A stretch of 64,000 nt of DNA from Elusimicrobiota bacterium (GTDB lineage Bacteria; Elusimicrobiota; Elusimicrobia; UBA1565; UBA9628): the NCBI GenBank assembly GCA_016207605.1, contig JACQPJ010000059.1, positions 1,238 to 65,237 of the forward strand. Direction: 5' to 3'. Positions 10,450-52,246 of the stretch are shown piece after piece. Within the stretch, counting starts at the first letter, position 1, and each line of letters opens with the position of its first letter. The notes beneath the pieces are model-generated. The model worked only from the letters and a program-made list of their open reading frames with translations. It was not told where the DNA came from and did not search any database. Both the position numbers and the translations under genes were made by a program.

Positions 10450-10459
10450 CGGCCCCGCG

Positions 10460-36897: not shown

Positions 36898-38648
36898 ACT
36901 GCATGCAAAACGCCATCGTCCTGGCCATCCTCGCCGTCCCAGCCGGCGCGGCCGTCAAGAATCCCGACACCTACACCTACCTGACCATCGGCGACGTGGA
37001 CAACCTCGACCCGGCCTGGGCCTACGACACGTCCAGCCAGCATGTCATCCAGAACGTCTACGAGCACCTCCTCTCCTTTCCGGGGACGGGCCTGCGCGCC
37101 GAGGACCTCGCGCCACGGATCGCAACCCGGGTTCCCAGCCGCGCCAACGGCCTGATCTCCGCCGACGGACTGACCTACCGCTTCCCCATCCGGCAGGGCG
37201 TGAAGTTCCACGACGGCTCGGCGCTGACGCCGCAGGACGTGCGCTACTCGCTCCTGCGCTTCATGCTCCTCGATCGCGCCGGCGGCCCGTCGTCGCTGCT
37301 CCTGGAGCCGATCCTGGGCGCCGTCTCCACTCGCCGGAACGGCGCGCTCTCCCCCGACATCGCGGCACAGGCTTTCGCCGCCGTGACCGTCGAAGGGGGC
37401 ACGGTCGTCGTGCGGCTGGATCGCCCGTTCACGCCTTTCCTGTCCGTACTGGCAAGCTTCGGCGCGGTGATGTCCCAATCCTGGTGCACGGCCAACGGAC
37501 AGTGGGACGGCCGCCCTGAAACCGCGGCCCGCTTCAACGACCCGCGCCGCGAGGGCACTTTAGGCGCGCGCATGAACGGCACCGGCCCTTTCCGGCTCGA
37601 CCGCCTGGACCCCGTCCTCAAGCAGATCACGCTGAAACGCCACGACGCATACTGGCGCGGGCCCGCGCGGCTCAAAACCATCCTCGTCAAAACCGTGGAT
37701 GAGTTCGCCACCCGCAAGCTCATGCTCGAGGCTGGGGACGCGGACTCGATTTACGAGCGGCAGAGCAACTTCTCCCAGCTCCAGGGACTGCCGGAGGTGC
37801 GGATCATCGACGACTTGCACGGGTTGGAGCGCATGGAGGTGCTGTTCTTCACCTTCAAGATCAACCCCTCCGCCAACGGCAACATTGGCTCCGGCCGATT
37901 GGACGGCCACGGCATCCCGCCGGATTTCTTCTCCGACAGGGACGCGCGCGAGGCGTTCGCCGCCTCCATCGACTACGAGGGCTTCTCGCGCGACGTCGGC
38001 CGCGGCCGGACCAGCCAGTCGGCCGGCTTCCTCCCGCCGGGGCTGACGGGCTACGATCCGGCGCGGTGCCCGCGGCACCGCTTCGACCTGGCTGAGGCCA
38101 AGACGCGCTTACAAAAGGCCTGGGGCGGCAAGGTGTGGGACAAGGGTTTTCACGCCGCGCTCGTCTTCAACGCGGGCTCGATCGAAGCCCAAGCTCTCTG
38201 CCAGATGCTCAAGAAGAACATCGAGTCGCTCAACCCCAAGTTCCGCCTGGACGTGCGCATGCTGCAGTGGTCGAGCTATGTGGAACAGTCGCGCCAGCGC
38301 AAGCTCCCCATCTTCCTCGGGGCCTGGCAGGCCGATTATCCCGACGCGCACAACTTCGCCTTTCCGTTCCTGCATTCCGCCGGCTACTTCCCGACCAAAC
38401 AGGGCTTCTCCGACCCGGCCGCGGACCGGCTCATCGAGGAGGCCGTCGCGACGCTCGATGAGACCCGGCGCGCCGCGCTCTACGGCCGACTGGAAGACCT
38501 CGCCGCCGAGCAGACGCCCTTCGTCCCCGTCTTCGACGGCACGCGCTACCGCGCCCAGCGCTCCTGGGTGAAGGGTTTCGTTTTCAAGCCCACCTTCCCG
38601 GCGATGCCCTACGCCAGCGACTATTACGACCTATACAAAGCCGAGTAA
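36894..38648 (+). CDS. oppA: peptide ABC transporter substrate-binding protein (family 5), paralog 2
   Basis: NLDPAWAYD, VKFHDG, NGTGPF, WQADYPD. Confidence 0.9.
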   Translation: MNCMQNAIVLAILAVPAGAAVKNPDTYTYLTIGDVDNLDPAWAYDTSSQHVIQNVYEHLLSFPGTGLRAEDLAPRIATRVPSRANGLISADGLTYRFPIRQGVKFHDGSALTPQDVRYSLLRFMLLDRAGGPSSLLLEPILGAVSTRRNGALSPDIAAQAFAAVTVEGGTVVVRLDRPFTPFLSVLASFGAVMSQSWCTANGQWDGRPETAARFNDPRREGTLGARMNGTGPFRLDRLDPVLKQITLKRHDAYWRGPARLKTILVKTVDEFATRKLMLEAGDADSIYERQSNFSQLQGLPEVRIIDDLHGLERMEVLFFTFKINPSANGNIGSGRLDGHGIPPDFFSDRDAREAFAASIDYEGFSRDVGRGRTSQSAGFLPPGLTGYDPARCPRHRFDLAEAKTRLQKAWGGKVWDKGFHAALVFNAGSIEAQALCQMLKKNIESLNPKFRLDVRMLQWSSYVEQSRQRKLPIFLGAWQADYPDAHNFAFPFLHSAGYFPTKQGFSDPAADRLIEEAVATLDETRRAALYGRLEDLAAEQTPFVPVFDGTRYRAQRSWVKGFVFKPTFPAMPYASDYYDLYKAE

Positions 38649-38667
38649 ACTCGGCTAGAATGGGGCC

Positions 38668-40431
38668 ATGAAACGACGATCGCTCCTCCCTGTTGTCGTC
38701 CTAAGCCTATCCTTGGGAGTTGGCGGCGCGGCGGCCGAGACCGTCAAACACCCCGACACCTACACCTACCTAACCATCTCCGACGCCGACAGCCTGGACC
38801 CGGCCTGGTCCTACGACGTGGGCAGTCATCTCGTCGTCCTCAACATCTACGAGCCCCTGTTCCAGTTCGACGGCTCCTCGACCGAACGCCTGCTCCCGCT
38901 CAGCGCGGCCAAGGTCCCCTCGCGCGCCAACGGCCTGATCTCCGCCGACGGGCTCGTCTACACCATCCCCATCCGCCAGGGCGTCAAGTTCCACGACGGC
39001 GCGCCCATGACCGCCGAGGACGCGCGCTATTCCATCCTCCGCTTCATGCTCCAGGATCGGGCCGCCGGCCCCTCGTCTTTGCTCCTGGAGCCCCTGCTTG
39101 GCTATGCGGGCACGCGCGGACCGGATGGCAAGACTCTCCCCAACGTCTGGGAGGACGCCAATCGCGCCGTGACGATCTCGGGCGACAACTTGGTCCTGCG
39201 CCTGCCCAAGCCCTACGCGCCGCTGGTGGGCATACTCGCCTCCTGGGCGCCCGTCCTGTCCAAGGACTGGGCAACCAAGAACGGCGACTGGGACGGAACC
39301 GAGGCGACGTGGGCCAAATACAACAACCCGCAAAAATCCGCCTCGCCCTTCTTCGAGCGCGCCAACGGCACCGGCCCCTTCAAGCTGGAGCGCTGGGACC
39401 GCAAGACCAAGGAGTTCATCCTGACGCGCAACGACGGCTACTGGCGCGCGCCCGCCCAGCTCAAGACCGTGGTGATCAAGGCCGTCGACGAGTTCGGCAC
39501 GCGCAAGCTCATGCTTCAGGCCGGCGACGCCGACAACATCCGCGCCGATTTGCCCATGCTGTCCCAGCTTCAGAACCTGCCGGGCGTGCAGATCGTCGAC
39601 AACCTACCCACGATGAACATGGACCCGACCGTGTTCTTCACCTACAAGATCACCGCGGCGGGAAACTCCTTCCTCGGCTCCGGCCGCTTGGACGGAAGCG
39701 GCATTCCGCCGGACTTCTTCTCCGACGCGGACGTGCGCAAGGGCTTCGCCTACGCCATGGACTACCAGGGCTTCATCGCCGACGTCCAGCGCGGCAAGAG
39801 CACCCAGGCCACGGGCGCCATCCCCAAAAGCCTGCCCGGCCACAACCCCAAGGGACGCCAATACCGCCTGGACTTGGCCAAAGCGAAAGAACACTTCCGG
39901 AAAGCCTGGGGAGGCAAGGTCTGGGAGCAAGGCTTCAAGTTCACGATCGCCTACAACACGGGGAATATCCCGCGTCAGACCCTTTGTCAAATCCTCAAGG
40001 GCAACGTGGAGCGCCTCAACCCCAAGTTCCGGATCGACGTGCGCGCCGTGGACTGGCCGACCTTCCTGGACGCCTACAAGGCCTCCAAACTGCCCATCTT
40101 CGTGATGGGCTGGAACGCGGATTTCCCGGATCCGCACACCTTCGCCTTTCCCATGCTGCACTCACAGGGTGACTACCCGGCCACGCAAAAATTCGGCCGG
40201 CCGGACTTCGACCAGCTCATCGAGCAGGCCAAGTTCGAGTTGGATCCGGCCAAGCGCAAGGCCCTGTACTACAAGCTTCAGGACCTGGCTTTCGATGAGT
40301 GTCCCCAGCTCTACATCAACGACGACGTGCGCTATCGGGCCCAGCGCAGTTGGGTGAAAGGCTGGACCCCCAATCCGGTCTTTCCGGACCCTCCGTGGGG
40401 CAGCTACTACTACCCCATCTCCAAGCGATAG
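38668..40431 (+). CDS. oppA: peptide ABC transporter substrate-binding protein (family 5), paralog 3
   Basis: SLDPAWSYD, VKFHDG, NGTGPFKL, WNADFPD; own TAGAAT box 6 nt before ATG. Confidence 0.92.
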   Translation: MKRRSLLPVVVLSLSLGVGGAAAETVKHPDTYTYLTISDADSLDPAWSYDVGSHLVVLNIYEPLFQFDGSSTERLLPLSAAKVPSRANGLISADGLVYTIPIRQGVKFHDGAPMTAEDARYSILRFMLQDRAAGPSSLLLEPLLGYAGTRGPDGKTLPNVWEDANRAVTISGDNLVLRLPKPYAPLVGILASWAPVLSKDWATKNGDWDGTEATWAKYNNPQKSASPFFERANGTGPFKLERWDRKTKEFILTRNDGYWRAPAQLKTVVIKAVDEFGTRKLMLQAGDADNIRADLPMLSQLQNLPGVQIVDNLPTMNMDPTVFFTYKITAAGNSFLGSGRLDGSGIPPDFFSDADVRKGFAYAMDYQGFIADVQRGKSTQATGAIPKSLPGHNPKGRQYRLDLAKAKEHFRKAWGGKVWEQGFKFTIAYNTGNIPRQTLCQILKGNVERLNPKFRIDVRAVDWPTFLDAYKASKLPIFVMGWNADFPDPHTFAFPMLHSQGDYPATQKFGRPDFDQLIEQAKFELDPAKRKALYYKLQDLAFDECPQLYINDDVRYRAQRSWVKGWTPNPVFPDPPWGSYYYPISKR

Positions 40432-40432
40432 C

Positions 40433-41461
40433 GTGCTGAAATACGTCCTCAAGCGCCTGGCCTTCCTGCCGCTGGTGATGGCGGGGGTCACGCTCCTGCT
40501 GTTCGCCTGCCTGCAGTTCCTCTCGCCGGAGATGCGCGCCTCGCTCTACGTCCGGGACCCGCGCCAGCTCAACCAGATGGAGGCGATCATCGAGAAGTAC
40601 GGCCTGCGCAAGCCCATGCCCGTGCAGTACGGGCGCTGGCTCAAGCAGGTGGCGCGCGGCGACCTGGGCTACTCGGAGACGGCCAAGATGCCCGTGTCCG
40701 AGGCCATCGGCGCCTTCTTCCCCGCGACCTTCGAGCTGACGCTCGTGACCTTCTTCCCGATCCTGGCCGTGGGCGTGGCGCTGGGCGTGCTCTCGGCCGT
40801 GTACAAGGACCGCTTCCTGGACCACGCCTCGCGCTTCATCGCGGTCACGGGCTACTCCCTGCCCAGCTTCGTGCTCGGCCTGGCCCTGCTCATGGTCTTC
40901 TACGGCCGCCTGCACTGGTTCCCGCCGGGGCGCTACGGCCTGGAGACCGACCTTCTCGTGCACGGCGCAGGCTTCCGGCATTGGACCGGCCTGCTCACCC
41001 TGGACTGCCTGCTCAACGGGCGCTGGTCCGCTTTCGCGGACGTCGTCAAGCACTTGGTCCTGCCGGCCTGCACTCTGCTCTACATCTCGGTCGCCCTGCT
41101 CCTGCGCATCACCCGCTCCTCGATGCTCGAGGAGCTCTCCAAGGACTACGTGCGCACGGCCCGCGCCAAGGGCCTGCCCGAGCGCGCCGTCATCTTGAAG
41201 CACGCCCTGCGCAACGCCCTCATCCCCCTGGTCACGCTCTCCAGCCGGCTCTCCATCGGCCTGCTCGGCGGCGACGTCATCACCGAGACCATCTTCGACT
41301 TCCCCGGCATCGGCCGCTGGGGCGTGCAGGCCGCCCAGCAGCTCGACATCCCCGGCGTGCTGGGCTCGACTTTGCTCGCCGCCGGCCTCTTCGTGCTGGC
41401 GAACCTGGTCGCCGACCTGCTCTACGCGGTCGTGGACCCGCGCATCCGCGTGGGGAGCTGA
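40433..41461 (+). CDS. oppB: oligopeptide ABC transporter permease
   Basis: YVLKRL, GDLGYS, PATFEL, EELSKDYVRTARAKGL, HALRNA. Confidence 0.95.
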   Translation: MLKYVLKRLAFLPLVMAGVTLLLFACLQFLSPEMRASLYVRDPRQLNQMEAIIEKYGLRKPMPVQYGRWLKQVARGDLGYSETAKMPVSEAIGAFFPATFELTLVTFFPILAVGVALGVLSAVYKDRFLDHASRFIAVTGYSLPSFVLGLALLMVFYGRLHWFPPGRYGLETDLLVHGAGFRHWTGLLTLDCLLNGRWSAFADVVKHLVLPACTLLYISVALLLRITRSSMLEELSKDYVRTARAKGLPERAVILKHALRNALIPLVTLSSRLSIGLLGGDVITETIFDFPGIGRWGVQAAQQLDIPGVLGSTLLAAGLFVLANLVADLLYAVVDPRIRVGS

Positions 41462-41465
41462 TCCG

Positions 41466-42347
41466 GTGGAGCGCTTGAAGGGAATCTGGAAGGTCCTGAG
41501 GCGCAGGCCCATGTCCCTGCTCGGCTGCGCCCTGGTCGGCTTCTTCCTCCTCGTCGCCGTCGCCGCGCCCCGGCTGGCGCCGCCGCCGGCGGGCAGCCGC
41601 GACCCCTACCTCATGCCGCAGAGCGGCTACAGCCCCGATCCCGTGCTCCCGTCCCAGGAGCACCGGTTCGGGACCACCGAGCAGCAGTACGACCTCTACT
41701 ACGGCATGGTCTGGGGCGCGCGCACCGCCTTCAAGGTCGCGCTCTCGGTCGTGGGCTCCGCGGCGCTGGTGGGCATCCTCCTGGGCGGCGTGGCCGGCTA
41801 CCGCGGGGGCTGGACCGACGAGCTGGTCATGCGCCTGACCGACGTGATCCTGGCCTTCCCCGACATCGTGCTGGCCGTCGTGATCGTGGCGGTCTGGGGC
41901 CCCAGCCTCCTGCACGTCATGGGGGCCGTGGCCTTCACGGCCTGGCCCTCCTACGCCCGCCTCATGCGCGGCGACGTGCTCTCGGTCAAGGAGCGCGACT
42001 TCGTGACCGCGGCGCGCGCGCTGGGCGCCTCGGACGCGCGCATCCTCCTGCGCCACATCATCCCCAACGCCATCTACCCCGTGCTGATCGTGGCTTCGCT
42101 GTCGATGGGCCGGACCGTGATCACGGCCGCGGCGCTCTCTTTCCTCGGTCTGGGCGAGCCCGCGGGCTACGCCGACTGGGGCCAGCTCATCTCGCTCTCG
42201 CGCAACTGGATCATGGGCTCCGCGGGCGACCCCTTCGCCTACTGGCACACCGTCTTCATCCCCGGAGCGGCCATCTTTCTTTTCGTGCTGGGCTGGAACC
42301 TGCTCGGCGACGCCGCCCGCGACATCCTGGATCCGCGGCAGAAATAA
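41466..42347 (+). CDS. oppC: oligopeptide ABC transporter permease
   Basis: HRFGT, RLTDVILAFP, KERDFVTAARALGA, LSFLGLG, WNLLGDAARDILDP. Confidence 0.95.
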   Translation: MERLKGIWKVLRRRPMSLLGCALVGFFLLVAVAAPRLAPPPAGSRDPYLMPQSGYSPDPVLPSQEHRFGTTEQQYDLYYGMVWGARTAFKVALSVVGSAALVGILLGGVAGYRGGWTDELVMRLTDVILAFPDIVLAVVIVAVWGPSLLHVMGAVAFTAWPSYARLMRGDVLSVKERDFVTAARALGASDARILLRHIIPNAIYPVLIVASLSMGRTVITAAALSFLGLGEPAGYADWGQLISLSRNWIMGSAGDPFAYWHTVFIPGAAIFLFVLGWNLLGDAARDILDPRQK

Positions 42348-42438
42348 ATATCTCGGCGCTTTCCCGTACGACCGCGCGTATGCGTCTCTTGCGTGAATAA
42401 TGCTTTACATTTGAGAGCGGATATGCCATCCTCCGACC

Positions 42439-43824
42439 ATGGACGCTCCGCTCTCCGTCCTGGTCGTTGAAGACGACGCGCTGGCGCGCAAGGTCCTAGC
42501 GGCGCACCTGGCCCCGCACCGGGCGGACCCCGCGCCCGACGCCGAGACGGCCCGCCGCAAGCTCGCCTCGGGCCGCTACGACATCGCCTTCATCGACCTT
42601 CAGCTCGACGCAAGCGGCGGCTACGCCGGCCTGGAGCTCATCAAGCCCGCCTCCGCCAAGGGCATCTACACCGTGGTCATGTCCGGCCACGACTCCGAGA
42701 AGTGCGTCGAGCGCGCCTACGAGCTCGGCTGCGACGACTTCTACGCCAAGGGCAACGAGCAGGACAACGTCGGCCGGGTGCTGGCGCGCTTCCTGGAGAG
42801 CCGCGACGGCGCCCGCAGGGAGCGTTTGTTCACCGAGCGCTTCGTCACCGGGGACGCCGACACCCGCGCCGCCGTCCTGGCCGCGCTGGAGTACGCCCCC
42901 TCCGAGCTGCCCATCCTCCTCCTGGGCCCCTCGGGCACCGGCAAGACCAGCCTGGCCCGCGTCATCCACGACCACTCCGGCCGCAAGGGGGGGTTCGTCG
43001 CCATCAACTGCTCGGCCTACACCGAGGACCTATTAGAAGCGGAGCTCTTCGGCTACCGCAAGGGTGCTTTCACCGGCGCCGGCGAGAGCCGCAAGGGCAA
43101 GCTGCTTCTGGCCGACCAGGGGACCCTGTTCCTAGACGAGATCGGCGCCATGAGCCTCAAGATGCAGACCAAGCTGCTCAAGGCCATTGAGGAGCGCTCC
43201 TTCTACCCGCTGGGCTGCGACCGGCCCGAGACCTCGCAGTTCCGCCTCGTCAGCGCGACCCTTGAGGACCTGCACGGCCTGATCAAGGGAGGCAGGCTGC
43301 GCTTCGACTTCTTCCAGCGCATCCACGGCTTCACCCTCAAGCTCAAGCCCCTGGCCCAGCGGCCCTGCGACATCCTCCCTCTCGTCGCCTTCTTCACCAA
43401 GGGGGCGCGGCGGCTGTCGTTCTCGGCCGAGGCCAAGGCCAGGCTGCTGGCCTGCCCCTGGCCGGGCAACATCCGCGAGCTCAAGAAGTTCGTGGACCTC
43501 TTGGAGGCCGGCCACGAGGGCCGCGTGGGCCCCGAAGCCGTCGAGCGGCTCCTGGCGGCCCTGCGCGTGGAGCAGGGCCCCGAGGGCTTTGCGAGCGACG
43601 AGCAGTACCGCTTCGCCCTGAGCCGGGGCCTCAACGAGGCGGTCGACCGCTTCATCGACGTCCTCATCCAGCGGAGTCTATCCGACAACGGGGGCAAGAA
43701 GACCAAGGTCCTCGACGACATGAAGATCTGCACCCGGCTGCTCTACACGTCCCTGGCCCGCAGCGGACGTCCGCCCCAGCCCAAAGAGGCCAAGGATGAG
43801 CGCGAGCTCGAAGAAGTCGCTTGA
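42439..43824 (+). CDS. sigma54-dependent response regulator (NtrC family)
   Basis: REC (VLVVEDD, FIDLQL), AAA+ (GPSGTGKT, GAFTGA, LFLDEIG, WPGNIREL), C-terminal Fis-like HTH. Confidence 0.95.
   Translation: MDAPLSVLVVEDDALARKVLAAHLAPHRADPAPDAETARRKLASGRYDIAFIDLQLDASGGYAGLELIKPASAKGIYTVVMSGHDSEKCVERAYELGCDDFYAKGNEQDNVGRVLARFLESRDGARRERLFTERFVTGDADTRAAVLAALEYAPSELPILLLGPSGTGKTSLARVIHDHSGRKGGFVAINCSAYTEDLLEAELFGYRKGAFTGAGESRKGKLLLADQGTLFLDEIGAMSLKMQTKLLKAIEERSFYPLGCDRPETSQFRLVSATLEDLHGLIKGGRLRFDFFQRIHGFTLKLKPLAQRPCDILPLVAFFTKGARRLSFSAEAKARLLACPWPGNIRELKKFVDLLEAGHEGRVGPEAVERLLAALRVEQGPEGFASDEQYRFALSRGLNEAVDRFIDVLIQRSLSDNGGKKTKVLDDMKICTRLLYTSLARSGRPPQPKEAKDERELEEVA
43724..43809 (+). repeat. 86-bp direct repeat, copy 1 (3' end of the NtrC gene)
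   Basis: Matches 49414-49499 with one mismatch. Confidence 0.95.
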
Positions 43825-44011
43825 GAGCCTGATCCACGACGTCGGCTCGAAGTGCGCTTCCCTCAAGAGCGCCGCCGCTCTGTTGAAATCCGCCTCACCG
43901 CAGGAAACCAAGGAATTGTTGGCGTTGATGGCCCAGCAGGCTAAAAGCCTTGCCGAGACGATTCAGAACTTTAGGATGCAATCAGAACATGAGCGGCGGG
44001 CTTTTCACTAA
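43796..44011 (+). CDS. small protein with a histidine-kinase H-box-like (DHp) motif
   Basis: 71 aa; LIHDVGSKCASLKSAAALL resembles HisKA H-box helices; overlaps NtrC 3' end. Confidence 0.6.
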   Translation: MSASSKKSLESLIHDVGSKCASLKSAAALLKSASPQETKELLALMAQQAKSLAETIQNFRMQSEHERRAFH

Positions 44012-45095
44012 TCATATGGGCACAAACTGGTTGCAGGACTCCATCATTGGCGGCCTTCTCAAATTCACGGGCAGCCAGAAATTTCTGACGGCACAACTTA
44101 ACATAACAAACGCCTGCAATCTAAGTTGCGTCCACTGCTATCACGCACACCATTCCAACGCAGGTGCTTTAGATTTCCAAGGATGGCGAAGCATTCTTGA
44201 TCAGTATGAACGACTTGCAAAGAAGCTCTACTTAAAGCCCTTTTTTGTTATTTGTGGAGGGGAACCAACTATCAGCTCCCTGTTCATACCCATGCTCAAG
44301 GAATTAAACTCAAGATGGCCTGGTGTGAGGGTAGACGTTCTTACTAATGGGACACGACTTGCTAGAGGATTTACGGAGTCCCTTAGACAGTTCAATCTAG
44401 GCATTCAGATTTCTCTGGACGGTCCTGATAGAGAAAGACATGATCTTATTCGCGGGCATGGAAGCTTCGATCAGACTCTCAGCGGGCTCAACAATCTGCA
44501 AGAGGCGGGATTAAACGCATGGTTTCTTGCAACGTTATCCCATCGGACTTCATTGTGGATCGAAGACTTCTTTAAGATGGCAGCAATATCCGAAGTAGAG
44601 GGAATGAATTTTACGCGATTTATTCCTGAGGGAACTGGACGCCTGCTAGAAGAAAGTCATGCGGATCGACCGCTCTCAGGAGTTGATCTGCGGGATACTT
44701 ATGCAGCTATTCTTAAATCTTCCAAGGGAACGGGGGTCGCTACCAATACAAATGGCCCATTGTTTCACCTCATTGATTCCAATCTTGGAGCCAATGGTAA
44801 AGCTGGATTCCAAGGGTTGATTATTGACTATAAGGGAAACTTAAAGTTTTCAAGTCGTGTCGATTTCAAGCTCGGCAATATCTTGGAGGAAGGTTTAGAG
44901 AATTTATTTCTTGGCCATCCTCTCATGCGGGCTCTGCGGAACAGAGAGATTGAGGGATGCGGCACGTGTGTTCACTACGAACATTGCGGAGGCGACAGAA
45001 ATGCCTCTTTTGTCGCTACTGGAAGCTTTCTTAAGAAGGACCCTGGTTGTTGGTTGGACACCGCGCCTCAGGAGGTTGTATGCCGAAAAAAATGA
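43989..45095 (+). CDS. radical SAM protein with SPASM-type C-terminal domain
   Basis: CNLSCVHC (Cx3Cx2C), CGGEP, VLTNG, ISLDG, C-terminal CGTCVHYEHCGGDRNA...DPGCW; start uncertain (43950/43989/44015). Confidence 0.93.
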   Translation: MSGGLFTNHMGTNWLQDSIIGGLLKFTGSQKFLTAQLNITNACNLSCVHCYHAHHSNAGALDFQGWRSILDQYERLAKKLYLKPFFVICGGEPTISSLFIPMLKELNSRWPGVRVDVLTNGTRLARGFTESLRQFNLGIQISLDGPDRERHDLIRGHGSFDQTLSGLNNLQEAGLNAWFLATLSHRTSLWIEDFFKMAAISEVEGMNFTRFIPEGTGRLLEESHADRPLSGVDLRDTYAAILKSSKGTGVATNTNGPLFHLIDSNLGANGKAGFQGLIIDYKGNLKFSSRVDFKLGNILEEGLENLFLGHPLMRALRNREIEGCGTCVHYEHCGGDRNASFVATGSFLKKDPGCWLDTAPQEVVCRKK

Positions 45096-45238
45096 AACGT
45101 TGCGGATTGTTGCTGTTGGCGATGATGCCGATTGCATCAGTTGCGTTTGCGGCCAAGGCAGCGCTTAGTATCGCGCAGCTTGGAAAAAAAGGCGTCACGG
45201 ACATTGAATTATATTCATGTTCGTACGACAGTAAATAA
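45080..45238 (+). CDS. 52-aa secreted peptide (candidate precursor/signal)
   Basis: AGGAGG at 45070-45075; MPKKMKRCGLLLLAMMPIASVAFA|AKAALSIAQLGKKGVTDIELYSCSYDSK; overlaps rSAM stop. Confidence 0.65.
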   Translation: MPKKMKRCGLLLLAMMPIASVAFAAKAALSIAQLGKKGVTDIELYSCSYDSK

Positions 45239-45353
45239 AACAATCGGGCGTTTTGTTTGCGAAGGAGCCCCTCCGCCGTCATTTCTGCTCATATTACGGC
45301 GGAGGGGCCTCTTAGACTATAGGGCTTCGTGTTGAATGTAGGATTGGAATTTA

Positions 45354-46925
45354 TTGAAAGCACAAGAATATTTTTTCAATTTTCGGGGCAAGTGGTTGCT
45401 CCTACTTGTCTTCGGTGTAATTTTTATTGCCGGCAAACTATTGATAGAGAGGCATCATGTGGTAACTACGACTAAGACTTTGCTCGTTGGAATCCCGGGC
45501 TATTGGGGAACGGTTGTGCCTCCATTGCAACATTCCGCTTATGGTTCCGCTGTATTGGATAACCAATTCGAACCTTTGGTCCGACGCGGACAGAATGGAT
45601 TAATCGAACCCTTGGCTGCCATATCCTGGGAAGTCAGCCCAGATAATTGCGTATTTCGATTTAAGATCGACACAAAACGACGATTTTCCGATGGTTCAAG
45701 CTTAAGCGCTACAGACTTTAAGAGATCTTGGGAAAACGGGCTTCGCATGCAAGCTAAATCCAACAATAAGGCTGTGGAAGATGCTCTTTACACCGTTAAA
45801 GGCTTCGCAGCATTCGCCGAGAAAGGGACAATTGAAGGAGTCCGGGTTCATGGGCATGACTTATTGGAGATTGAGTTTGACAAACCTGTACGTGTCGCGT
45901 TGGAGTATTTGGCCGGTGTTCGCTATGCCGCCTATAAATTTGTCGGGAATCGCCCAATTGGTACCGGTCCCTACGTCATGGAGGAGAAGGACAATGAGTT
46001 GTTTTTAACTCCCAATACATACTACACAGGGAATGAACCGCGATTCGATAAAATCAAAATTGTAGTAGCAGCTCCAGAGACTGTTGAAAAGAAACTTCAA
46101 TCAGAAGAGATTGATGTGCTGATCTTTGCGGAGCGGACACATATGCCGGGATGTCTTGATGAGTCAGCGGGCAAAATTCGATGCGCTTTCAGCCAGGAAG
46201 CCTCTCATGTTTCTATTGACATCAATGGCTTGCGCGGACGGATTTTCTCCAATCGCAAGTATCGGCTGGCCCTGCAGGCCCTGGTCCACAAGAAACTGGA
46301 AGAGATCGGCTTGCCCAAAGAACTTCAAGCAGGCCATTTTACTTCAGACTCCCAAAGCTTCTTGAAATTTCAATCGGGCAGGCTGTCAGATACTGAGGTA
46401 GGAGAAATCATACGACTCGGGCGCAAATACATTCCTGAGCTTGTAGAGGCTTCGCTGAGGACTCCTGTTTATTTGGTTTCTGCAGATGAATGCCGGTGGC
46501 TGATCACCATTTTGCACGATGAAGGAGTGAAAATTGCCGAGAACTCGGGAAGGACCGAATTCTCCAAAATGCTCGAAATGGAATATAAAACTTACGAACC
46601 GGATATTATCCTGGGCAGTTTCTCTGTTTACAACGGTGATCCTGATGGACTCTATCATTTGCTTGGGAAACATGGGTCCATCTTTTCTCCTATGATGGAT
46701 AGAGAAGGCATAGGAGACTTGTTAGACGCAGGGCGTGAGATCATGGATCGAAATTCATTGGCTCCTCACTATGAGAAATTAGCCCGAGTCATCTTAAAGG
46801 AAGTCCCCTATGTTCATCTAGGCTATACCGCTAGAGTGATCGCTTACAATTCAGATAAAATTCGCGTCAATGATAATTTCATCAGTAGGGACTACCGTCG
46901 ACTAACGATATTAGAGCCCCGATGA
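45354..46925 (+). CDS. family-5 solute-binding protein without a permease partner (probable sensory receptor)
   Basis: N-terminal TM anchor, FEPLV, RFSDGSSLSATDFKRS, IGTGPY, DPDG; TTG start; ATGA-coupled to the kinase. Confidence 0.85.
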   Translation: MKAQEYFFNFRGKWLLLLVFGVIFIAGKLLIERHHVVTTTKTLLVGIPGYWGTVVPPLQHSAYGSAVLDNQFEPLVRRGQNGLIEPLAAISWEVSPDNCVFRFKIDTKRRFSDGSSLSATDFKRSWENGLRMQAKSNNKAVEDALYTVKGFAAFAEKGTIEGVRVHGHDLLEIEFDKPVRVALEYLAGVRYAAYKFVGNRPIGTGPYVMEEKDNELFLTPNTYYTGNEPRFDKIKIVVAAPETVEKKLQSEEIDVLIFAERTHMPGCLDESAGKIRCAFSQEASHVSIDINGLRGRIFSNRKYRLALQALVHKKLEEIGLPKELQAGHFTSDSQSFLKFQSGRLSDTEVGEIIRLGRKYIPELVEASLRTPVYLVSADECRWLITILHDEGVKIAENSGRTEFSKMLEMEYKTYEPDIILGSFSVYNGDPDGLYHLLGKHGSIFSPMMDREGIGDLLDAGREIMDRNSLAPHYEKLARVILKEVPYVHLGYTARVIAYNSDKIRVNDNFISRDYRRLTILEPR

Positions 46926-48985
46926 TCGATCTGAAAGCCTGGATCAATAGTAACGCAAAACAACCACTTATATGCGCAATCAGCGCCGCCATTTGCCTGC
47001 AAGCAGGGTATCTCGTCCATCTAGCTCATGATCATTACTCGGCTCAAATCCACCGTATCGAGCGTGTAGTCCAGACCGCAAGCCTTGGAGTCCAACAGGC
47101 TAATAGGCCACTTGTTGAGTCGGCTCTCATTGCGAGCTTGCATAATTCAGATGCCGTTCAAGTGGCTTTATGCCAGGGAACCAAAGCGGACTTAAGGTAC
47201 CCACTCTCAAACAACGATCCATGTCAGACCGCACCCAAAGGAATTTTTCATTGGACAATTCGAATCCCGGCAATTGGAGTGGCAGGGCATGATTTCGTCT
47301 TCGTGGTCAATAGACTGGATATCTTTGCCTCATTAATGGTGTTGGTCGCCATAACCGCGCTGCTATCCCTGACTATGGTTTTGATTCTTATCCACATGCG
47401 TAGGAAGTTCGAATCGGAAGTCCTCGAGCCGCTTTATCATGGGCTCGATCAGGAGAAGCCGTTGGAGATATCCGAATTAGATGATATTAGGCTCAAAATC
47501 CATGAGCATCATGCGCTAAATCAAAAGCGAGCTGTCTCTGAAGCTCTCTTCGAAATGAGCGCTCAAGTCGCGCATGACATTCGCTCTCCCCTAGCCGCCC
47601 TGGAAACGGTAGTCAAGGATGTTTCCTCATTGCCTGAGAATCACCGGATCATCGTGCGCAGCGCCGTCAGCCGTATACGAGACATTGCCAACAGCTTGCT
47701 TGATAGACGCCGAGAGGCGTCTGGTTCGCAAGTTGCTCAGGTTCAATCTGCTATTGCAGAACCTGTAGCAGCCTGCTTGCTTTCAGGTCTCCTTGACCCG
47801 CTAGTTACTGAAAAGCGCTTGCAATTCCGTTCCCGCATTAATGTCGAGATAGACTTGCGTATGGATGAATTTTTCTGCGGCCTCTTCGCCAAGGTTCAAC
47901 CTGTCGAGTTTCAACGAGCTGTTTCCAATCTAATCAACAATGCGGTCGAGGCGCTGAAAGAGAAAGGAACTGTTACAGTTAATTTAAAGTCTTCGGATAA
48001 TGAGATTCTTATAGAAGTCAGCGATAACGGCGAAGGCATCCCACCTGAAATACTGGCTAATCTGGGCCAAAGAGGCGAAACCCACGGTAAGACCGGGGGC
48101 TCGGGCCTTGGACTTCACCACGCAAGAAGTTTCGCTGAATCTTGGGGCGGGCGGCTTGAGCTTGCGTCCCAAGTCGATAAGGGCACTACTGCTACCATAG
48201 TCTTGCCGCAAGCTTCCGCGCCGGAATGGTTTATATCGCAGCTCTTATTTGAACCGGGGCAGACTGTCGTGATCCTGGATGACGACACCAGCATCCACCA
48301 AGTGTGGCAAGGGCGGCTGGATTCCTTGTGCTCCGCTGGTACCATTCAGGCCATTCATTTCTCGACACCCCAGGAACTTATTAAATGGGTAGGGGAAGAC
48401 AGGGTCAGGGCGCAGGCTGCCTTATACTTGCTCGACTATGAACTTCTGGGCTACAAGGAAACAGGCTTAAAACTTTCCGAGACGCTTGGACTTGGCAAGC
48501 AAACGATCCTCGTGACAAGCCGCTATCAAGAATCTGGCATTCTGGAATGCTGTCGTAAGCTCAAAGTTCGGATGATCCCAAAGGGGCTGGCGGGGCTGGT
48601 GCCTATCCGAATGCGCTGGGTCACGGGACAAGATAATTCAGACAAAATTGATGCCGTTCTCGTTGACGATGACCCATTAGTCCGTGCGACATGGGCTTTA
48701 ACGGCAACCAAGGCGGGGAAGCAGTTGGCGGTATTTTCTTCAGCCGCAGAGTTTTGGGGCGCAATGGCTCGTATTGGTCGCTCCACTCCGATCTATTTAG
48801 ACCAGGAGCTTGGCGACATCGTAAAAGGGGAGAAGCTTGCAGCGCAGTTAAACGGGCTGGGGTTTGCTGAAATCTACTTGGCAACTGGACATAAACTTAC
48901 CCTTGTAAAAACGCCCAATTACATAAAAGGGATTGTCGGCAAGGAGCCGCCTTGGGTGGTTGAAGAAATAGGTGCAACAACTTGA
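46922..48985 (+). CDS. membrane hybrid sensor histidine kinase with two REC-like domains
   Basis: Two TM segments; H box AQVAHDIRSPL; N box NLINNAVEA; G1 DNGEG; G2 GSGLGL; REC-like VVILDDD..LLDYEL and VLVDDD..YLDQEL. Confidence 0.92.
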   Translation: MIDLKAWINSNAKQPLICAISAAICLQAGYLVHLAHDHYSAQIHRIERVVQTASLGVQQANRPLVESALIASLHNSDAVQVALCQGTKADLRYPLSNNDPCQTAPKGIFHWTIRIPAIGVAGHDFVFVVNRLDIFASLMVLVAITALLSLTMVLILIHMRRKFESEVLEPLYHGLDQEKPLEISELDDIRLKIHEHHALNQKRAVSEALFEMSAQVAHDIRSPLAALETVVKDVSSLPENHRIIVRSAVSRIRDIANSLLDRRREASGSQVAQVQSAIAEPVAACLLSGLLDPLVTEKRLQFRSRINVEIDLRMDEFFCGLFAKVQPVEFQRAVSNLINNAVEALKEKGTVTVNLKSSDNEILIEVSDNGEGIPPEILANLGQRGETHGKTGGSGLGLHHARSFAESWGGRLELASQVDKGTTATIVLPQASAPEWFISQLLFEPGQTVVILDDDTSIHQVWQGRLDSLCSAGTIQAIHFSTPQELIKWVGEDRVRAQAALYLLDYELLGYKETGLKLSETLGLGKQTILVTSRYQESGILECCRKLKVRMIPKGLAGLVPIRMRWVTGQDNSDKIDAVLVDDDPLVRATWALTATKAGKQLAVFSSAAEFWGAMARIGRSTPIYLDQELGDIVKGEKLAAQLNGLGFAEIYLATGHKLTLVKTPNYIKGIVGKEPPWVVEEIGATT

Positions 48986-49090
48986 GGAAAATTGTCTGGA
49001 GTCGAGTTCGTTGGCTACAACCTGAAGTATATTCTCTGTTTTGAAAATCTCCTCGGAGAAGCTTACCACCTGTAAGACGCTCAGTTGTTT

Positions 49091-49413
49091 GGCTCATGAC
49101 AGATTTTTGTGAACATGGACCCAGCCCCACGGGGAAAACACGCCCATCCATGGGGTGCAGACTTGGATGATTTTCAGCCGCATGTACTCATCGTCCCGGA
49201 AGCCATAGGCCCGGCGAATGAGATTCTTGGCCTTGAGATTGGTCGCTTCGATGTATCCCAACGATACCCGTTTGTCGCAGCAGGCAAGGATGCCGTCGAA
49301 GTGAGAGTCCACCATGCGGGCGAACTTGTGGTAGGGCTTGAGCCGGCTCCACTTGAGCTGATCGACCCAGGCGTTGAAGAAGCGCCACGCGCAGGTCTTG
49401 GATTTGTAGGTCC
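49091..49413 (-). mobile_element. ISL3-family transposase 3' remnant with terminal end
   Basis: W...LKWSRLKPYHKFARMVDSHFDGIL...LGYIEATNLKAKNLIRRAYGFRDDEY is ISL3-type C-terminus; GGCTC end at 49091; 5' part replaced by the direct repeat. Confidence 0.82.
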
Positions 49414-49499
49414 AGATCTGCACCCGGCTGCTCTACACGTCCCTGTCCCGCAGCGGACGTCCGCCCCAGCCCAAAGAGGCCAAGGATGAGCGCGAGCTC
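49414..49499 (+). repeat. 86-bp direct repeat, copy 2
   Basis: Matches 43724-43809 with one mismatch; followed by truncated mini-gene start (MSASSRE then stops). Confidence 0.95.
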
Positions 49500-49537
49500 T
49501 CGCGAGTGATAAGGCAAGGAGCCCCCGTGGGGAGAAA

Positions 49538-50122
49538 GTGCGATTAGCTGAGCGCCAGACCGTCCATCGTTTTGGCGGAAACCAGTGGTTGTATCATCAG
49601 ATTCCAGATGTCTTCGCCGGTGAGGTTCTATATCCCCTTAATCAATTGGTTGAGATTGCTCCGGAGGTCGCCAAGGTGGCGAAACGAAAATATGAGGGGC
49701 GAGAACATCTGATGAATGTGAGGCTTCCGCTTTTGAACTGCCTGTGGAACGACGTCTTGCATCTTAGTCCGATCCATCCTTCGAGGATCCGAGACGCGCT
49801 CATGGAGACCGGCTGTCTGCGGCAAGCGGATATTAAACCCCGACGTTTTTTTGTCATCGCTCCTGAAGGGTTAGAGCCCAGGCAAACGCTCTATTTCCAA
49901 AACTCTCATGATACCGGCTATAAGTATGATTTTCTGGAGAGCGACTTCGCTTTCTTCGACTTCCAACGCTATCGTGAATTGGCAGCGGTTCCTGACGAAC
50001 AATTTGGATACTTCATTCAAATGAAGGACGCGCAGAAAACTCCATTGCTTTGGGCGCGCACGCCCCATGTGTTTTATCGCGGGGCCATCCGCATGGCAGG
50101 TCTAGAGATCATCGATTGGTAG
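49538..50122 (+). CDS. conserved hypothetical protein
   Basis: GTG start with GGGAG upstream; LYPLNQL..KYEGRE..LNCLWNDVLHLSPIHP looks like a conserved family motif; low GC. Confidence 0.7.
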   Translation: MRLAERQTVHRFGGNQWLYHQIPDVFAGEVLYPLNQLVEIAPEVAKVAKRKYEGREHLMNVRLPLLNCLWNDVLHLSPIHPSRIRDALMETGCLRQADIKPRRFFVIAPEGLEPRQTLYFQNSHDTGYKYDFLESDFAFFDFQRYRELAAVPDEQFGYFIQMKDAQKTPLLWARTPHVFYRGAIRMAGLEIIDW

Positions 50123-50138
50123 GCAAGGAAAACGAATC

Positions 50139-50543
50139 ATGAGAAAACTCAAACCTGCGAAGGAAAATAAAAAATCGCGCATGATGGATCGTCTTTACGG
50201 GACCGGTTATTCGGAGGAAGTATTTCAACAACTGGAAAAACTCGATCCGGCATTCAACGATATTGTTCAACAATTCGCCTATGGCGAGATATGGGCGCGT
50301 AGCGGTCTAAGCATTCGCGATAAGAGTTTGGTGACCATTGCGGCTTTGATCGCGCTGGGTAAAGAAGAACAAACCAAGATCCATATACGTGGATTTTTGC
50401 GCTCAGGCGGTACTGTTGCGGAACTTAAAAGCGTGCTGATCCATCTTGTCGTTTATTGCGGATTCCCTGCGGCAATGAACGGATTCTCCGCTTTGCAAAT
50501 CGTTTTGGAGCGGATGCGCAATGAACATTATGAACGGCAATAA
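50139..50543 (+). CDS. carboxymuconolactone decarboxylase (CMD/AhpD-like) family protein
   Basis: FAYGEIWARSGLSIRDKSLVTIAALIALG...IHIRG...YCGFPAA. Confidence 0.9.
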   Translation: MRKLKPAKENKKSRMMDRLYGTGYSEEVFQQLEKLDPAFNDIVQQFAYGEIWARSGLSIRDKSLVTIAALIALGKEEQTKIHIRGFLRSGGTVAELKSVLIHLVVYCGFPAAMNGFSALQIVLERMRNEHYERQ

Positions 50544-50641
50544 GCGCCAGATGAAGGACTTCGCGGGCTAAACATGAGGGGGGACCAGGAATCCTTGCGG
50601 ATTTGCGAGTTGGCGTCTTGGCGTCTCGGCGGTTCATCGTT

Positions 50642-52246
50642 GTGACGTTGAACGGCCTTCTCGACCGGGCCGCCCAGGAGGGGGGAGAGCGGACGGCGCT
50701 GATCGCGGGAGAGCGCGAGGTCTCCTTCGCGGACCTGCGCCGCGAGGTCCTCTCGCTGGCCGAGGGCCTGCGCCGCGCCGGCGCCGCCAAGGGCGCCCGG
50801 CTCGCGATCGTCCACCGCAACGCGCCCGAGTTCGTCGCCGCCTATTTCGCCGCCCTGCGCCTGGGCGCCATTGCCGTGCCGCTCAACTTCCTGATCCACA
50901 AGCCCGACGAATTGGCTTATCTTCTCAACGACTGCGGCGCCTTCGGCGTCGTGACCCAGGCCGAGTTCCTGCCCGGCCTGAAGGCGGCGGCCGCGCGCTG
51001 TCCGGCCCTGCGCGCCCTCTGGGTCACGGACCGCGCGCGCCATCACGAGGGGGACGAATTGGTCAAGCCGTTCGCCGATCTGCGCGGGCCGGCCGCCGAG
51101 GAATTTAATGCCGACGCCGCGTCGGCCGAGGACGTCGCCGCCGTCCTCTACACCTCCGGCACGACCGGGCGCCCCAAGGGCGCCATGCTCACCCACCGCA
51201 ACCTCGTCTCCAACTGCGCAAGCTCCCTGCGGCGCATGGGGCTGACGCGCCGCGACGTCTCGGTCTGCATCCTGCCCATGTTCCACAGCTTCGCCTGGAC
51301 CGGGCTGGTGCTCGTCTCGCTGCGCCTGGCCATCCCATGCGTGATCGCCCACGCCGTGGCGCCGGCCAAGCCCTGGCTCCAAGCCATGGGGCGGCACGGC
51401 GTGACCCTTATTGCCGCCGTGCCCCAGGTTTACGCGGCCCTGGCCCGCGAGGCCAAGAGCTTCGAGGTCCGCTGGTTCCTGCGCCTGTGGGCCTTCCGCC
51501 GCGTGCGCGTGGCCGTCTCCGGCGCCGCGCCCCTGCCCGCGGCCACGGCCCGCGCCTTCGAGGCGGCCGTGGGCGTCCCCATCCTGGAGGGCTGGGGCCT
51601 CACCGAGACCAGCCCCGTGGCGACCGTCAACCCGCCCGGCCGCGCCAAGCCCGGCAGCGTGGGCCCTGCCATCGACGGCGTGCGCTTGAAGGTCGTGGAC
51701 GAGGAGGAGCGCGAGCTGCCCGTCGGCCAGGACGGCGAGATCTGCGTGCAGGGCGAGAACGTCATGAAGGGCTACTGGGGCCTGCCCGAGGACACCGCCG
51801 CGGCCTTTACGAAAGATGGGTGGTTTAAAACGGGCGACATCGGCGCGCTCGACGCGGACGACTACCTCGCCATTCACGACCGCAAGAAGGACATGGTCAT
51901 CGTCAAGGGCCTCAAGGTCTTCCCCGCGCAGGTGGAGGCGGTGATCGCCGAGCACCCCGACGTCGCCGAGTCGGCCGTCATCGGCGTGCCCGATTCCCTG
52001 GGCGACGAGACCCTCAAGGCCTTCGTCGTGCCCAAGAGCGGGCACGCGCCGGAGAAGGCGGAGCTCCTGCGCTTCTTCAAGGAGCGCCTCGACCACTACA
52101 AGCGCCCGCGCGACGTGGAGCTCGTCGCGGAGCTGCCCAAGAACGCCCTGCACAAGGTGCTCAAGCGCGTCCTGCGCGAACGCGAGCTCCAGAAGCGCGG
52201 CATCAAAAGCGTGAACCACGAAGACGCAAAGAATGTGGGGAACTGA
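50642..52246 (+). CDS. long-chain fatty-acid--CoA ligase (AMP-binding family)
   Basis: LYTSGTTGRPKG, EGWGLTET, FKTGDIG, DRKKDM, P.NALHKV; start uncertain (ORF from 50603). Confidence 0.93.
   Translation: MTLNGLLDRAAQEGGERTALIAGEREVSFADLRREVLSLAEGLRRAGAAKGARLAIVHRNAPEFVAAYFAALRLGAIAVPLNFLIHKPDELAYLLNDCGAFGVVTQAEFLPGLKAAAARCPALRALWVTDRARHHEGDELVKPFADLRGPAAEEFNADAASAEDVAAVLYTSGTTGRPKGAMLTHRNLVSNCASSLRRMGLTRRDVSVCILPMFHSFAWTGLVLVSLRLAIPCVIAHAVAPAKPWLQAMGRHGVTLIAAVPQVYAALAREAKSFEVRWFLRLWAFRRVRVAVSGAAPLPAATARAFEAAVGVPILEGWGLTETSPVATVNPPGRAKPGSVGPAIDGVRLKVVDEEERELPVGQDGEICVQGENVMKGYWGLPEDTAAAFTKDGWFKTGDIGALDADDYLAIHDRKKDMVIVKGLKVFPAQVEAVIAEHPDVAESAVIGVPDSLGDETLKAFVVPKSGHAPEKAELLRFFKERLDHYKRPRDVELVAELPKNALHKVLKRVLRERELQKRGIKSVNHEDAKNVGN

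Follow-up and report, generated by a model that had tools for sequence, protein, structure and literature searches.

Does a run of six genes in an Elusimicrobiota genome encode a system that makes, exports and senses its own modified peptide? The genes lie at positions 42439-48985 of a 64,000-nt stretch of contig JACQPJ010000059.1 (assembly GCA_016207605.1), which was analysed as a whole and is called the window below. A sequence-only reading of the locus had proposed that a radical S-adenosylmethionine (rSAM) enzyme matures a small exported peptide, that a solute-binding protein (SBP) and a hybrid histidine kinase sense it, and that a phosphorelay then drives sigma54-dependent transcription. 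We find that the rSAM, peptide, SBP and kinase genes form a unit that recurs across genomes, and we conclude that this cassette probably represents a modified-peptide signalling module not described before, of which the window holds a foreign, rearranged copy. To the peptide-signal model, in which the conserved four-gene sensory cassette comprises the rSAM enzyme, a precursor with a Sec signal, an anchored SBP and a sensor kinase, we assign about an even chance; modification of the peptide, its binding and its use in cell-to-cell signalling are what we infer.

Layout of the locus

The open reading frame (ORF) listing and domain scans recovered all six genes of the sequence-only reading at the coordinates given there, co-oriented on the + strand and mostly overlapping. 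The features of the locus are as follows.

42439-43824, + strand: NtrC-type sigma54 activator with a receiver (REC) domain, an AAA+ domain (Sigma54_activat) and a C-terminal helix-turn-helix-like end; G+C content (GC) of the host
43796-44011, + strand: 71-residue stand-alone His mini-protein resembling a dimerization and histidine phosphotransfer (DHp) domain, candidate His phosphotransfer step; host-type sequence to ~43972
43989-45095, + strand: rSAM enzyme (ATG at 43989, stop at 45095; 43950/43989-45095 in the domain listing) with a reduced SPASM-type C-terminal domain
45080-45238, + strand: 52-residue precursor-like ORF with a Sec-type signal peptide and a 28-residue hydrophilic mature part
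45262-45313, + strand: GC-rich stem-loop, an inverted repeat directly 3' of the small ORF
45354-46925, + strand: family-5 SBP (SBP_bac_5) with an N-terminal hydrophobic anchor, the proposed ligand receptor
46922-48985, + strand: hybrid histidine kinase (HisKA/HATPase_c) with two transmembrane segments and two receiver domains

As read from the sequence, the gene overlaps amount to 29 nt (activator and mini-protein), 23 nt (mini-protein and rSAM) and 16 nt (rSAM and small ORF), and the ATGA coupling of the kinase to the SBP gene was borne out by their overlapping start and stop codons. The sole gap in the run, 115 nt between the small ORF and the SBP gene, holds a strong hairpin. The gene set reflects more than chance: at least 27 called proteins make up the family of the small ORF, and the same order of genes is seen in many other places.

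Recurrence of the cassette across genomes

The rSAM enzyme, a small ORF with a signal peptide, an SBP_bac_5 protein and a kinase were encoded together in 10 of the 10 homologous loci that we read directly (L004, L005, L006, L007 (twice), L008, L012, L018, L019 and L022). Every one of these loci carries a signal-peptide ORF beside the SBP gene, which is also the small precursor ORF expected near an rSAM maturase. No rSAM-SBP-kinase cluster lacking the peptide ORF was found among them, so that the finding by which the sequence-only reading would have been refuted did not turn up. In 12 of 14 further copies of the rSAM gene, from 10 genomes of Elusimicrobiota and Bdellovibrionota, an SBP gene follows 250-460 nt downstream on the same strand; several of these genomes hold two or three copies of the rSAM cassette.

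The Elusimicrobia-type order is NtrC (455 residues), a 64-residue protein, a sigma54-like protein (355 residues), rSAM, a 53-residue ORF, SBP_bac_5 and a kinase of ~685 residues. One Elusimicrobiales chromosome contig (L007) carries two copies, of which the second (L007b) is reordered as small ORF, SBP, rSAM and kinase, and the adjacency of small ORF and SBP survives this change. A scan of named genomes gave a sharp boundary of the rSAM family (at least 39% versus at most 31% identity), with members in Elusimicrobiales and Bdellovibrionota (Bdellovibrio, Bacteriovorax, Silvanigrella and Oligoflexia). Four Bdellovibrionota loci examined in detail all encode the rSAM enzyme, a signal-peptide ORF, an anchored SBP_bac_5 protein and a kinase, and one has an NtrC-type gene directly upstream. 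Between the window and locus L004, the encoded proteins are 70% (rSAM), 57% (SBP), 56% (NtrC), 48% (peptide), 46% (kinase) and 34% (mini-protein) identical.

The radical SAM enzyme

The assignment of the enzyme as an rSAM/SPASM protein stood in its first part: the window enzyme matches Radical_SAM (PF04055, E 9e-21), as expected for the superfamily. The family comprises more than 400 homologs up to 73% identical, and in 20 homologs the cluster motif CX3CX2C (CNLSCVHC, starting at about residue 43) is invariant. The SPASM part holds only partially, since the invariant C-terminal pattern CX2CX5C..X20..C corresponds to one auxiliary-cluster motif; of the seven Cys residues that define two auxiliary clusters, four are kept family-wide; all 20 sequences lack the upstream pair of Cys residues as well as the fourth Cys of CX2CX5CX3C.

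No NCBIfam model reached its cut-off on the enzyme (ACGX, TIGR04053, MftC, AhbD, NirJ, anSME, PapB and others), the scores being 112 bits versus a cut-off of 400 for ACGX, the best match, 96 versus 265 for MftC and 50 versus 349 for anSME. The nearest sequence neighbours in the PDB are SkfB and anSME. With an AlphaFold2 (AF2) model (mean predicted local distance difference test score, pLDDT, 79.5), the top Foldseek matches were SuiB, SkfB and anSME (TM-scores 0.66-0.70, full length), ChlB, CteB and TigE, and BlsE, PqqE, viperin and MoaA ranked below these. The best sequence neighbours and the best neighbours of the predicted structure are thus all peptide or protein maturases, which would fit a modified-peptide signal. 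A tetrapyrrole enzyme of the AhbD/NirJ type, suggested by the Cys pattern and by NCBIfam matches, was rejected: the scores fall far short of the cut-offs, and in fold the closest enzymes are peptide maturases.

Among known enzymes the window protein is therefore most like the SPASM/twitch maturases anSME, SuiB and SkfB, its best matches in sequence and fold. It shares with anSME the lack of a RiPP recognition element (RRE; RiPP, a peptide made by the ribosome and modified after translation), and its candidate substrate bears a Sec signal. It differs in the incomplete SPASM Cys set of its family and in scores far below every NCBIfam cut-off, and the window peptide lacks a sulfatase, Lys-Trp or Cys-containing motif.

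The precursor-like ORF and the downstream hairpin

The 52-residue signal-peptide ORF of the sequence-only reading is present, with AGGAGG 5 nt upstream (45070-45075). Its product begins with a Sec-type signal, MPKKMKR-CGLLLLAMMPIASVAFA/A (the slash marks the predicted cleavage site), which is followed by the 28-residue hydrophilic mature part. An alignment of the peptide family, based on at least 27 called members, showed P17, F23, A24 and A25 to be invariant and L10, L13, V21, A22, S27, L29 and Q33 to be at least 90% conserved. The consensus LAMLPIxAVAFAAxSALxVAQI gives way to a hypervariable tail, and the N-terminus follows the n-h-c pattern of Sec signals, including an AFA/A site. The mature peptides are hydrophilic and rich in Ser, Asp and Gly. 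In the window and in the Elusimicrobia-type cassettes the small ORF is tightly coupled to the rSAM stop codon; the Bdellovibrionota loci have equivalent signal-peptide ORFs that share only the signal-like part and have mature parts of up to 85 residues. The Tyr and Cys residues of the window tail (YSCSYDSK) were considered as modification sites, but the idea was rejected for the family as a whole, since these residues are not conserved and the tail they stand in is hypervariable.

The hairpin behind the small ORF (45262-45313) is a 13-bp GC stem-loop with a folding energy of -46.1 kcal/mol (z = -3.85). It is possible that the window stem-loop acts as an attenuator or as an mRNA stabiliser, and the data fit a hairpin under selection for structure, for instance for differential mRNA stability of the peptide gene. 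Hairpins of unrelated sequence occupy the same position at L004:10330-10380, L005:10275-10315, and L007:10265-10310 and 10318-10352; with the window hairpin included, z ranges from -2.6 to -3.9.

The binding protein and the hybrid kinase

The SBP matches SBP_bac_5 (E 2e-26), its nearest sequence relatives in the PDB are peptide-, nickel/metallophore- and opine-binding proteins, and its orthologs in 8 loci are 30-57% identical. The SBP and kinase start and stop codons overlap in the window, L004, L005, L018 and L022, and no transporter genes (cognate ABC permease or ATPase) were found within the cassettes of the window or of the homologous loci read; the arrangement is that expected of a binding-protein-dependent kinase. 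The claim that the SBP has no permease or ATPase of its own thus holds for the cassette; OppB/C-type permease genes of the host, however, lie directly upstream of the NtrC gene. These belong to a host-GC oligopeptide uptake locus (33018-42347) with an OPT transporter gene, three tandem SBP_bac_5 genes and two OppB/C-type permease genes; no ABC ATPase gene is adjacent, and the OppBC-like genes are not conserved together with the cassette.

The kinase matches HATPase_c (E 1e-23), with weak HisKA and Response_reg matches, and combines two transmembrane segments, a periplasmic domain of ~100 residues with the conserved pattern 'QxNRPLIESA..C..C', the DHp and catalytic ATP-binding (CA) domains and two receiver domains. 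N61, R62, E66, C84 and H218 are invariant in an alignment with 8 homologs, and as read from the sequence both receivers retain the acidic pocket, phospho-acceptor Asp, Thr and Lys. The periplasmic domain is common to the cassette kinases, and a paralogous kinase on contig C52 of the same metagenome-assembled genome (MAG) lacks it.

The identity of the ligand is the point at which the best-surviving alternative departs from the peptide-signal model. The SBP and kinase would sense an outside ligand, which might be an opine-like compound, an oligopeptide or a complex of nickel/metallophore type, and the rSAM enzyme and small ORF would make not the signal but a product under its regulation, for example a periplasmic RiPP metallophore or an antimicrobial peptide. 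The solved relatives of the SBP bind ligands of these kinds, NCBIfam returns NikA, CntA and Opp4A, host peptide-uptake genes adjoin the locus, the mature peptides are hydrophilic and rich in Ser, Asp and Gly, and bufferins are Sec-exported RiPPs that can bind metal in the periplasm (PMC11626156). Nevertheless, adjacency of small ORF and SBP is the most stable feature of the cassette, even where the rSAM gene moves, the mature peptide has no conserved Cys or His that could serve as metal ligand, and in every locus, with no permease in the cassette, the SBP is membrane-anchored and coupled to the kinase. We consider this alternative unlikely. The peptide-signal model and its rivals are not mutually exclusive.

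The activator, the mini-protein and sigma54

The call of an NtrC-type activator was confirmed by Pfam (Sigma54_activat, E 2e-52; Response_reg, E 1e-11). Its 56% identity to the L004 protein extends over the full length, which makes it an ortholog of the activator that is linked to the cassette in other genomes; homologs at 60-70% identity number in the hundreds and carry the name Elusimicrobia. The 71-residue mini-protein was described as carrying an H-box, and its HisKA match is sub-threshold, yet the His is invariant: L9, I13, H14, V16, K19 and C20 are conserved in all 6 orthologs, and 'IHDVxSKCxSL' resembles the kinase H-box 'AHDIRSPLAAL'. The AF2 model (pLDDT 91.9) is a two-helix hairpin with the invariant His on helix 1. 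Foldseek placed the DHp domains of HK853 and EnvZ among its top matches (TM-scores 0.75-0.78), with E-values that are not significant, and a profile search against PDB sequences gave noise only. Candidate parts of a His-Asp-His-Asp phosphorelay are the receiver residues in both kinase REC domains and the mini-protein His, with the reservation that Pfam matches stay below threshold, that the Foldseek E-values lack significance and that locus L012 has no mini-protein.

The only sigma54-family gene found in the MAG encodes a sigma54-like paralog of ~340 residues on contig C52 (C52:37186-38208; L098:4187-5209). It is 33% identical to the cassette type and lies near a divergent NtrC-type gene (L098:1766-2983, - strand). 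No canonical full-length rpoN was detected in the assembly, which is 75% complete.

Genomic setting of the related cassettes

In five Elusimicrobia-type loci the cassette is directly preceded by a 2'-deoxyguanosine-II (2'-dG-II) riboswitch (RF03165), which scores 80-84 bits where the gathering score is 60. The literature knew this riboswitch class only from short metagenomic reads without such context.

2'-dG-II aptamers: L004:8878-8948; L005:8709-8779; L006:3002-3072; L007:16584-16654 (- strand); L010:961-1031

The riboswitch bears on a second alternative, in which the small ORF product is no enzyme substrate but serves the SBP/kinase complex as a structural accessory in the periplasm, and the rSAM enzyme acts on the SBP or kinase before export or on a small molecule, such as a guanine nucleoside. 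The five aptamers tie the cassette to deoxyguanosine, the signal peptide is the most conserved part of the small ORF, and the rSAM enzyme, with no RRE domain and a single auxiliary-cluster motif, has NCBIfam matches of similar strength to the small-molecule enzymes AhbD, NirJ and AhbC. On the other hand, the Bdellovibrionota cassettes have no 2'-dG-II riboswitch, the rSAM gene and small ORF are translationally coupled in the Elusimicrobia-type cassettes, and the top neighbours of the enzyme modify peptides or proteins, with viperin, MoaA and BlsE clearly lower. We regard an accessory role as quite improbable.

Type IV secretion genes (VirB8, TraC/VirB4 and TrbC), interspersed with genes for two or three single-domain receiver proteins, run divergently from the activator genes at L004:1-6003 and L005:1-5831, and two tyrosine integrase genes lie downstream of the kinase in L004. 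This arrangement suggests that conjugation genes are under phosphorelay control in L004 and L005. The cassette there has the setting of integrative-conjugative-element cargo; that setting is missing for the window, as no VirB4/TraC homolog was found in the MAG.

NtrC, a His mini-protein of 60-66 residues and a sigma54-like protein of ~350 residues form a unit that is abundant in Elusimicrobia. Of the sigma54 DNA-binding domain, its sigma54-like members match no more than positions ~15-82.

Regulatory trio: L004:6195-8829; L005:6027-8661; L090:9001-11604; L092:6298-8884; L093:6604-9154; L095:561-3159; L096:9001-11665

Its neighbours include a class III/IV-type lanthipeptide synthetase with a 46-residue ORF; YcaO/TfuA with a 33-residue ORF, SBP_bac_5 and a kinase; a B12-rSAM enzyme with a 47-residue ORF, together with a 62-residue ORF, SBP_bac_5 and a kinase; an indigoidine-type nonribosomal peptide synthetase; and 7TMR-DISM kinases. 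The trio therefore looks like a generic output module of Elusimicrobia.

A parallel module of native GC is found in the MAG itself, on contig C52 (60000-73260; L003: 2772-2918, 4015-9715, ~9720-9860 and 9977-10765). It encodes MFS and ATP-grasp proteins and a Peripla_BP_6 protein that is ATGA-coupled to a 684-residue hybrid kinase, 36% identical to that of the window; next come the remnant of a mini-protein gene, which contains an in-frame TAA, and a gene for an IS5-like transposase. Upstream, an NtrC paralog is represented by a 5' fragment of 48 codons, and an N-terminal piece of an ISL3 transposase is fused in frame to a Ser/Thr kinase-like sequence. The sigma54-like paralog of C52 lies 32 kb from this module.

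Mosaic origin of the window copy

A compositional junction near 43973 splits the six genes, with a GC of ~0.68 in the NtrC and mini-protein genes and ~0.46-0.52 from the rSAM gene to 50600. The further features of this region are as follows.

43973-50600, no strand: low-GC island (0.43-0.55, versus 0.65-0.75 in the flanks, from composition profiles)
43724-43809, + strand: copy 1 of an 86-nt direct repeat, covering the NtrC 3' end and the first 14 nt of the mini-protein gene
49414-49499, + strand: copy 2 of the repeat, a high-GC stretch from the NtrC 3' end that stands as an orphan amid low-GC DNA
49094-49423, - strand: fragment from the C-terminus of a transposase of the ISL3 family (match to DDE_Tnp_ISL3, E 2e-20, over positions 157-240 of the 240 in the profile)
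49538-50543, + strand: distal island genes, for a 194-residue ORF (no Pfam family) and a 134-residue carboxymuconolactone decarboxylase family (CMD) protein (E 3e-18)

The island is the largest low-GC tract of the 1.44-Mb, 75%-complete MAG. The rSAM gene is absent from 24 of 24 genomes of the same genus and present in 1 of 16 of the same order. The mini-protein gene is of host type, having an 87%-identical remnant with an in-frame stop on contig C52; this similarity ends at 43972, which places the left junction of the island between that position and the rSAM ATG at 43989. The two repeat copies are 99% identical at a spacing of 5690, and the second cuts off the ISL3 fragment. The window copy is thus a horizontally acquired, rearranged cassette joined 3' of a host-type sigma54 activator and mini-protein. 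The low-GC island continues past repeat copy 2; the genes for the 194-residue and CMD proteins lie outside the conserved cassette, and a link of these distal genes to L004-type elements or plasmids was rejected, since comparison with the L004 neighbours and with plasmid records gave no similarity.

A Logan assembly of run SRR12113385 contains a 5,664-bp contig (L097) with the mini-protein, rSAM, peptide, SBP and kinase genes and the ISL3 fragment. This contig opens on the final 30 nt of the 86-nt repeat and closes on its first 30 nt, reaching exactly 30 nt into each repeat copy. The contig, from a second, independent assembler, supports the high-GC/low-GC junction. It represents exactly one repeat-bounded unit, which fits an integrated form, a circular form or both. 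Repeat copy 2 is host-type DNA within foreign DNA, which argues for real recombination at the locus rather than a chance misjoin. Exact scans of metagenome contigs for the junction (43960-44008) and for the repeat core returned 0 matches each, and a search for an orthologous empty site in 25 genomes of the same genus returned only NtrC paralogs of 70-76% identity, none spanning the repeat or the mini-protein gene.

We think it quite unlikely that in this genome the locus is merely a relic without function, or a composite at the assembly level, in which a foreign cassette (possibly also a 5.69-kb repeat-bounded circle) was joined to host DNA by recombination with loss of the sigma54 paralog, riboswitch and promoter: the GC break, the repeat, the truncated ISL3 gene, the orphan NtrC fragments here and on C52, the missing riboswitch and cassette-type sigma54 gene, and the extent of the Logan contig, which suits either form, would all fit, but the six reading frames are intact and coupled, the second assembler reproduced the junction, host-type repeat copy 2 inside foreign DNA calls for real recombination, and a sigma54-like paralog is present elsewhere in the MAG.

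A working model and the evidence against it

In the peptide-signal model, the precursor, while still in the cytoplasm, would receive a small modification from the rSAM enzyme, much as sulfatases do from anSME. Export by Sec and cleavage by signal peptidase I would then free a peptide of ~28 residues into the periplasm, as judged from the n-h-c signal, the AFA/A site and the bufferin precedent. The anchored SBP would bind the peptide and modulate the coupled kinase through its small Cys-containing periplasmic domain, a step suggested by the conserved coupling of the two genes. Phosphate would pass from the kinase His to the receiver domain or domains, to His14 of the mini-protein and to the NtrC receiver, a path drawn from domain content and conserved residues, and NtrC would switch on sigma54-type promoters. 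In the native Elusimicrobia setting the cassette normally has a sigma54-like paralog of its own and often stands beside type IV secretion genes, and the 2'-dG-II riboswitch would gate it; the window copy, having lost riboswitch and paralog, would be transcribed by read-through from the NtrC and mini-protein genes. Action of the peptide between cells and action only within the periplasm of the producer are both compatible with the model. Its support comes from the coupling of small ORF, SBP and kinase, the maturase fold, the conserved leader with a variable tail, the paralogous cassettes, the occurrence of the trio beside other peptide-modifying enzymes and the bufferin precedent.

Several results weigh against the model. 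No RRE (PqqD-like) domain was matched by Pfam or NCBIfam in the rSAM enzyme or its neighbours, or in the homologous loci. Across the peptide family the mature region has neither a conserved Cys nor a conserved aromatic residue, and between the phyla the mature peptides share nothing beyond the signal peptide and vary in length from 28 to 85 residues. The cassette encodes no exporter or protease and offers no route across the outer membrane, so that the peptide would stay periplasmic in a diderm. In the Bdellovibrionota locus L012 the NtrC gene is directly joined to the rSAM gene with no mini-protein gene, and the mini-protein is therefore not universally required. Scans of the window, L004 and L005 for -24/-12 sigma54 promoters (TGGCACN5TTGCW, at most 2 mismatches) gave counts no higher than in shuffled sequences and no site in the relevant intergenic DNA; since the sigma54-like paralog of the cassette matches only part of the sigma54 DNA-binding domain, its promoter may differ. 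The sigma54-like gene is missing beside the window cassette, Rfam gave nothing at E at or below 0.1 in window positions 41000-52000, and RF03165 is also absent from the whole MAG. Because it lacks the sigma54-like gene and the riboswitch and carries recombination scars, the window copy may be inactive. The sequence-only reading was thus partly supported, above all in its gene synteny, which recurs, but it had missed the foreign mosaic, the loss of the sigma54-like gene and riboswitch, and the lack of a detectable sigma54 promoter.

An extended form of the model would make the peptides a family of Sec-exported, rSAM-matured pheromones of diderms, with the window's as the first member seen, read by an anchored family-5 SBP and hybrid kinase, relayed by a DHp-only phosphotransferase to an NtrC protein with a dedicated sigma54 paralog, gated by a 2'-deoxyguanosine riboswitch and controlling conjugative transfer in Elusimicrobia. 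We give this form a low probability.

Relation to known systems

Periplasmic binding proteins serve as receptors for membrane kinases in LuxP-LuxQ-LuxU-LuxO (the autoinducer-2 circuit of Vibrio), TorT-TorS and AioX-AioS-AioR. The window locus resembles the LuxPQUO, TorTS and AioXSR systems in having a binding protein as proposed receptor for a membrane hybrid kinase, a candidate His phosphotransfer step and an NtrC-type sigma54 activator as output. Unlike LuxPQ, TorTS and AioXS, it uses an SBP of family 5 (the peptide/nickel/opine type) that is membrane-anchored, and the presumed ligand is a peptide encoded in the operon with its own rSAM enzyme. Its candidate transfer protein is a DHp-like hairpin of 60-71 residues and not a four-helix bundle of the histidine-containing phosphotransfer (Hpt) class, and its NtrC protein scores 173 bits on the LuxO model NF041946, far below the cut-off of 800.

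With AgrBDCA, ComQXPA and the nisin NisK/NisR system, the locus shares the joint encoding of a ribosomal peptide, a modifying enzyme, a sensor kinase and a regulator. The variable mature part of the peptide, together with the several paralogous cassettes that one genome can have, is reminiscent of pherotype diversification in Gram-positive autoinducer systems. The hosts here are diderms, however; a Sec signal takes the place of a dedicated exporter and protease, a binding protein stands between peptide and kinase, the output is sigma54-dependent, and none of the enzymes of the AgrBDCA, ComQXPA and nisin families is found in the cassette. Cases of rSAM peptides with an effect on signalling include the ranthipeptides and epipeptide/LiaRS. 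Bufferins are RiPPs with a Sec signal that are modified in the cytoplasm by a multinuclear non-heme iron-dependent oxidative (MNIO) enzyme and exported by Sec to give a periplasmic product, and bulky modifications would impede Sec export (PMC11626156). The window peptide has a comparable Sec-signal precursor, and the proposed model likewise has cytoplasmic modification, Sec export and a periplasmic product. The differences from bufferins are that the enzyme is a radical SAM protein and not an MNIO/DUF2063 protein, that no Cys is conserved, and that the cassette carries a receptor-kinase pair instead of metal-stress genes.

The architecture had not been recognised as a described system, and our literature search likewise found no paper describing the cassette; no curated NCBIfam model names any of its components above cut-off. 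There are precedents for every single principle, be it the kinase that depends on a binding protein, the autoinducer made from a modified peptide or the RiPP with a Sec signal, and it is the combination and the phyletic range that appear new.

Significance

To our knowledge, signalling by modified ribosomal peptides is familiar from Gram-positive bacteria and almost unheard of in diderms. Elusimicrobiota and Bdellovibrionota, both of them phyla that have been little studied, share the conserved four-gene unit. If the peptide-signal model is correct, the unit would provide new rSAM peptide chemistry that is necessarily compatible with Sec export, a family-5 binding protein serving purely as a receptor and a minimal, DHp-only phosphotransfer protein, and its relatives would give the 2'-dG-II riboswitch a genomic and physiological context. 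The pheromone form, if true, would mean that peptide pheromones control conjugation outside Firmicutes as well, and would assign a physiological role to a riboswitch that has stood in an orphan context. The use of one output module, composed of a bacterial enhancer-binding protein, a mini-protein and a sigma54 paralog and plugged into many small-peptide and secondary-metabolite clusters, suggests a general signalling logic of the Elusimicrobia.

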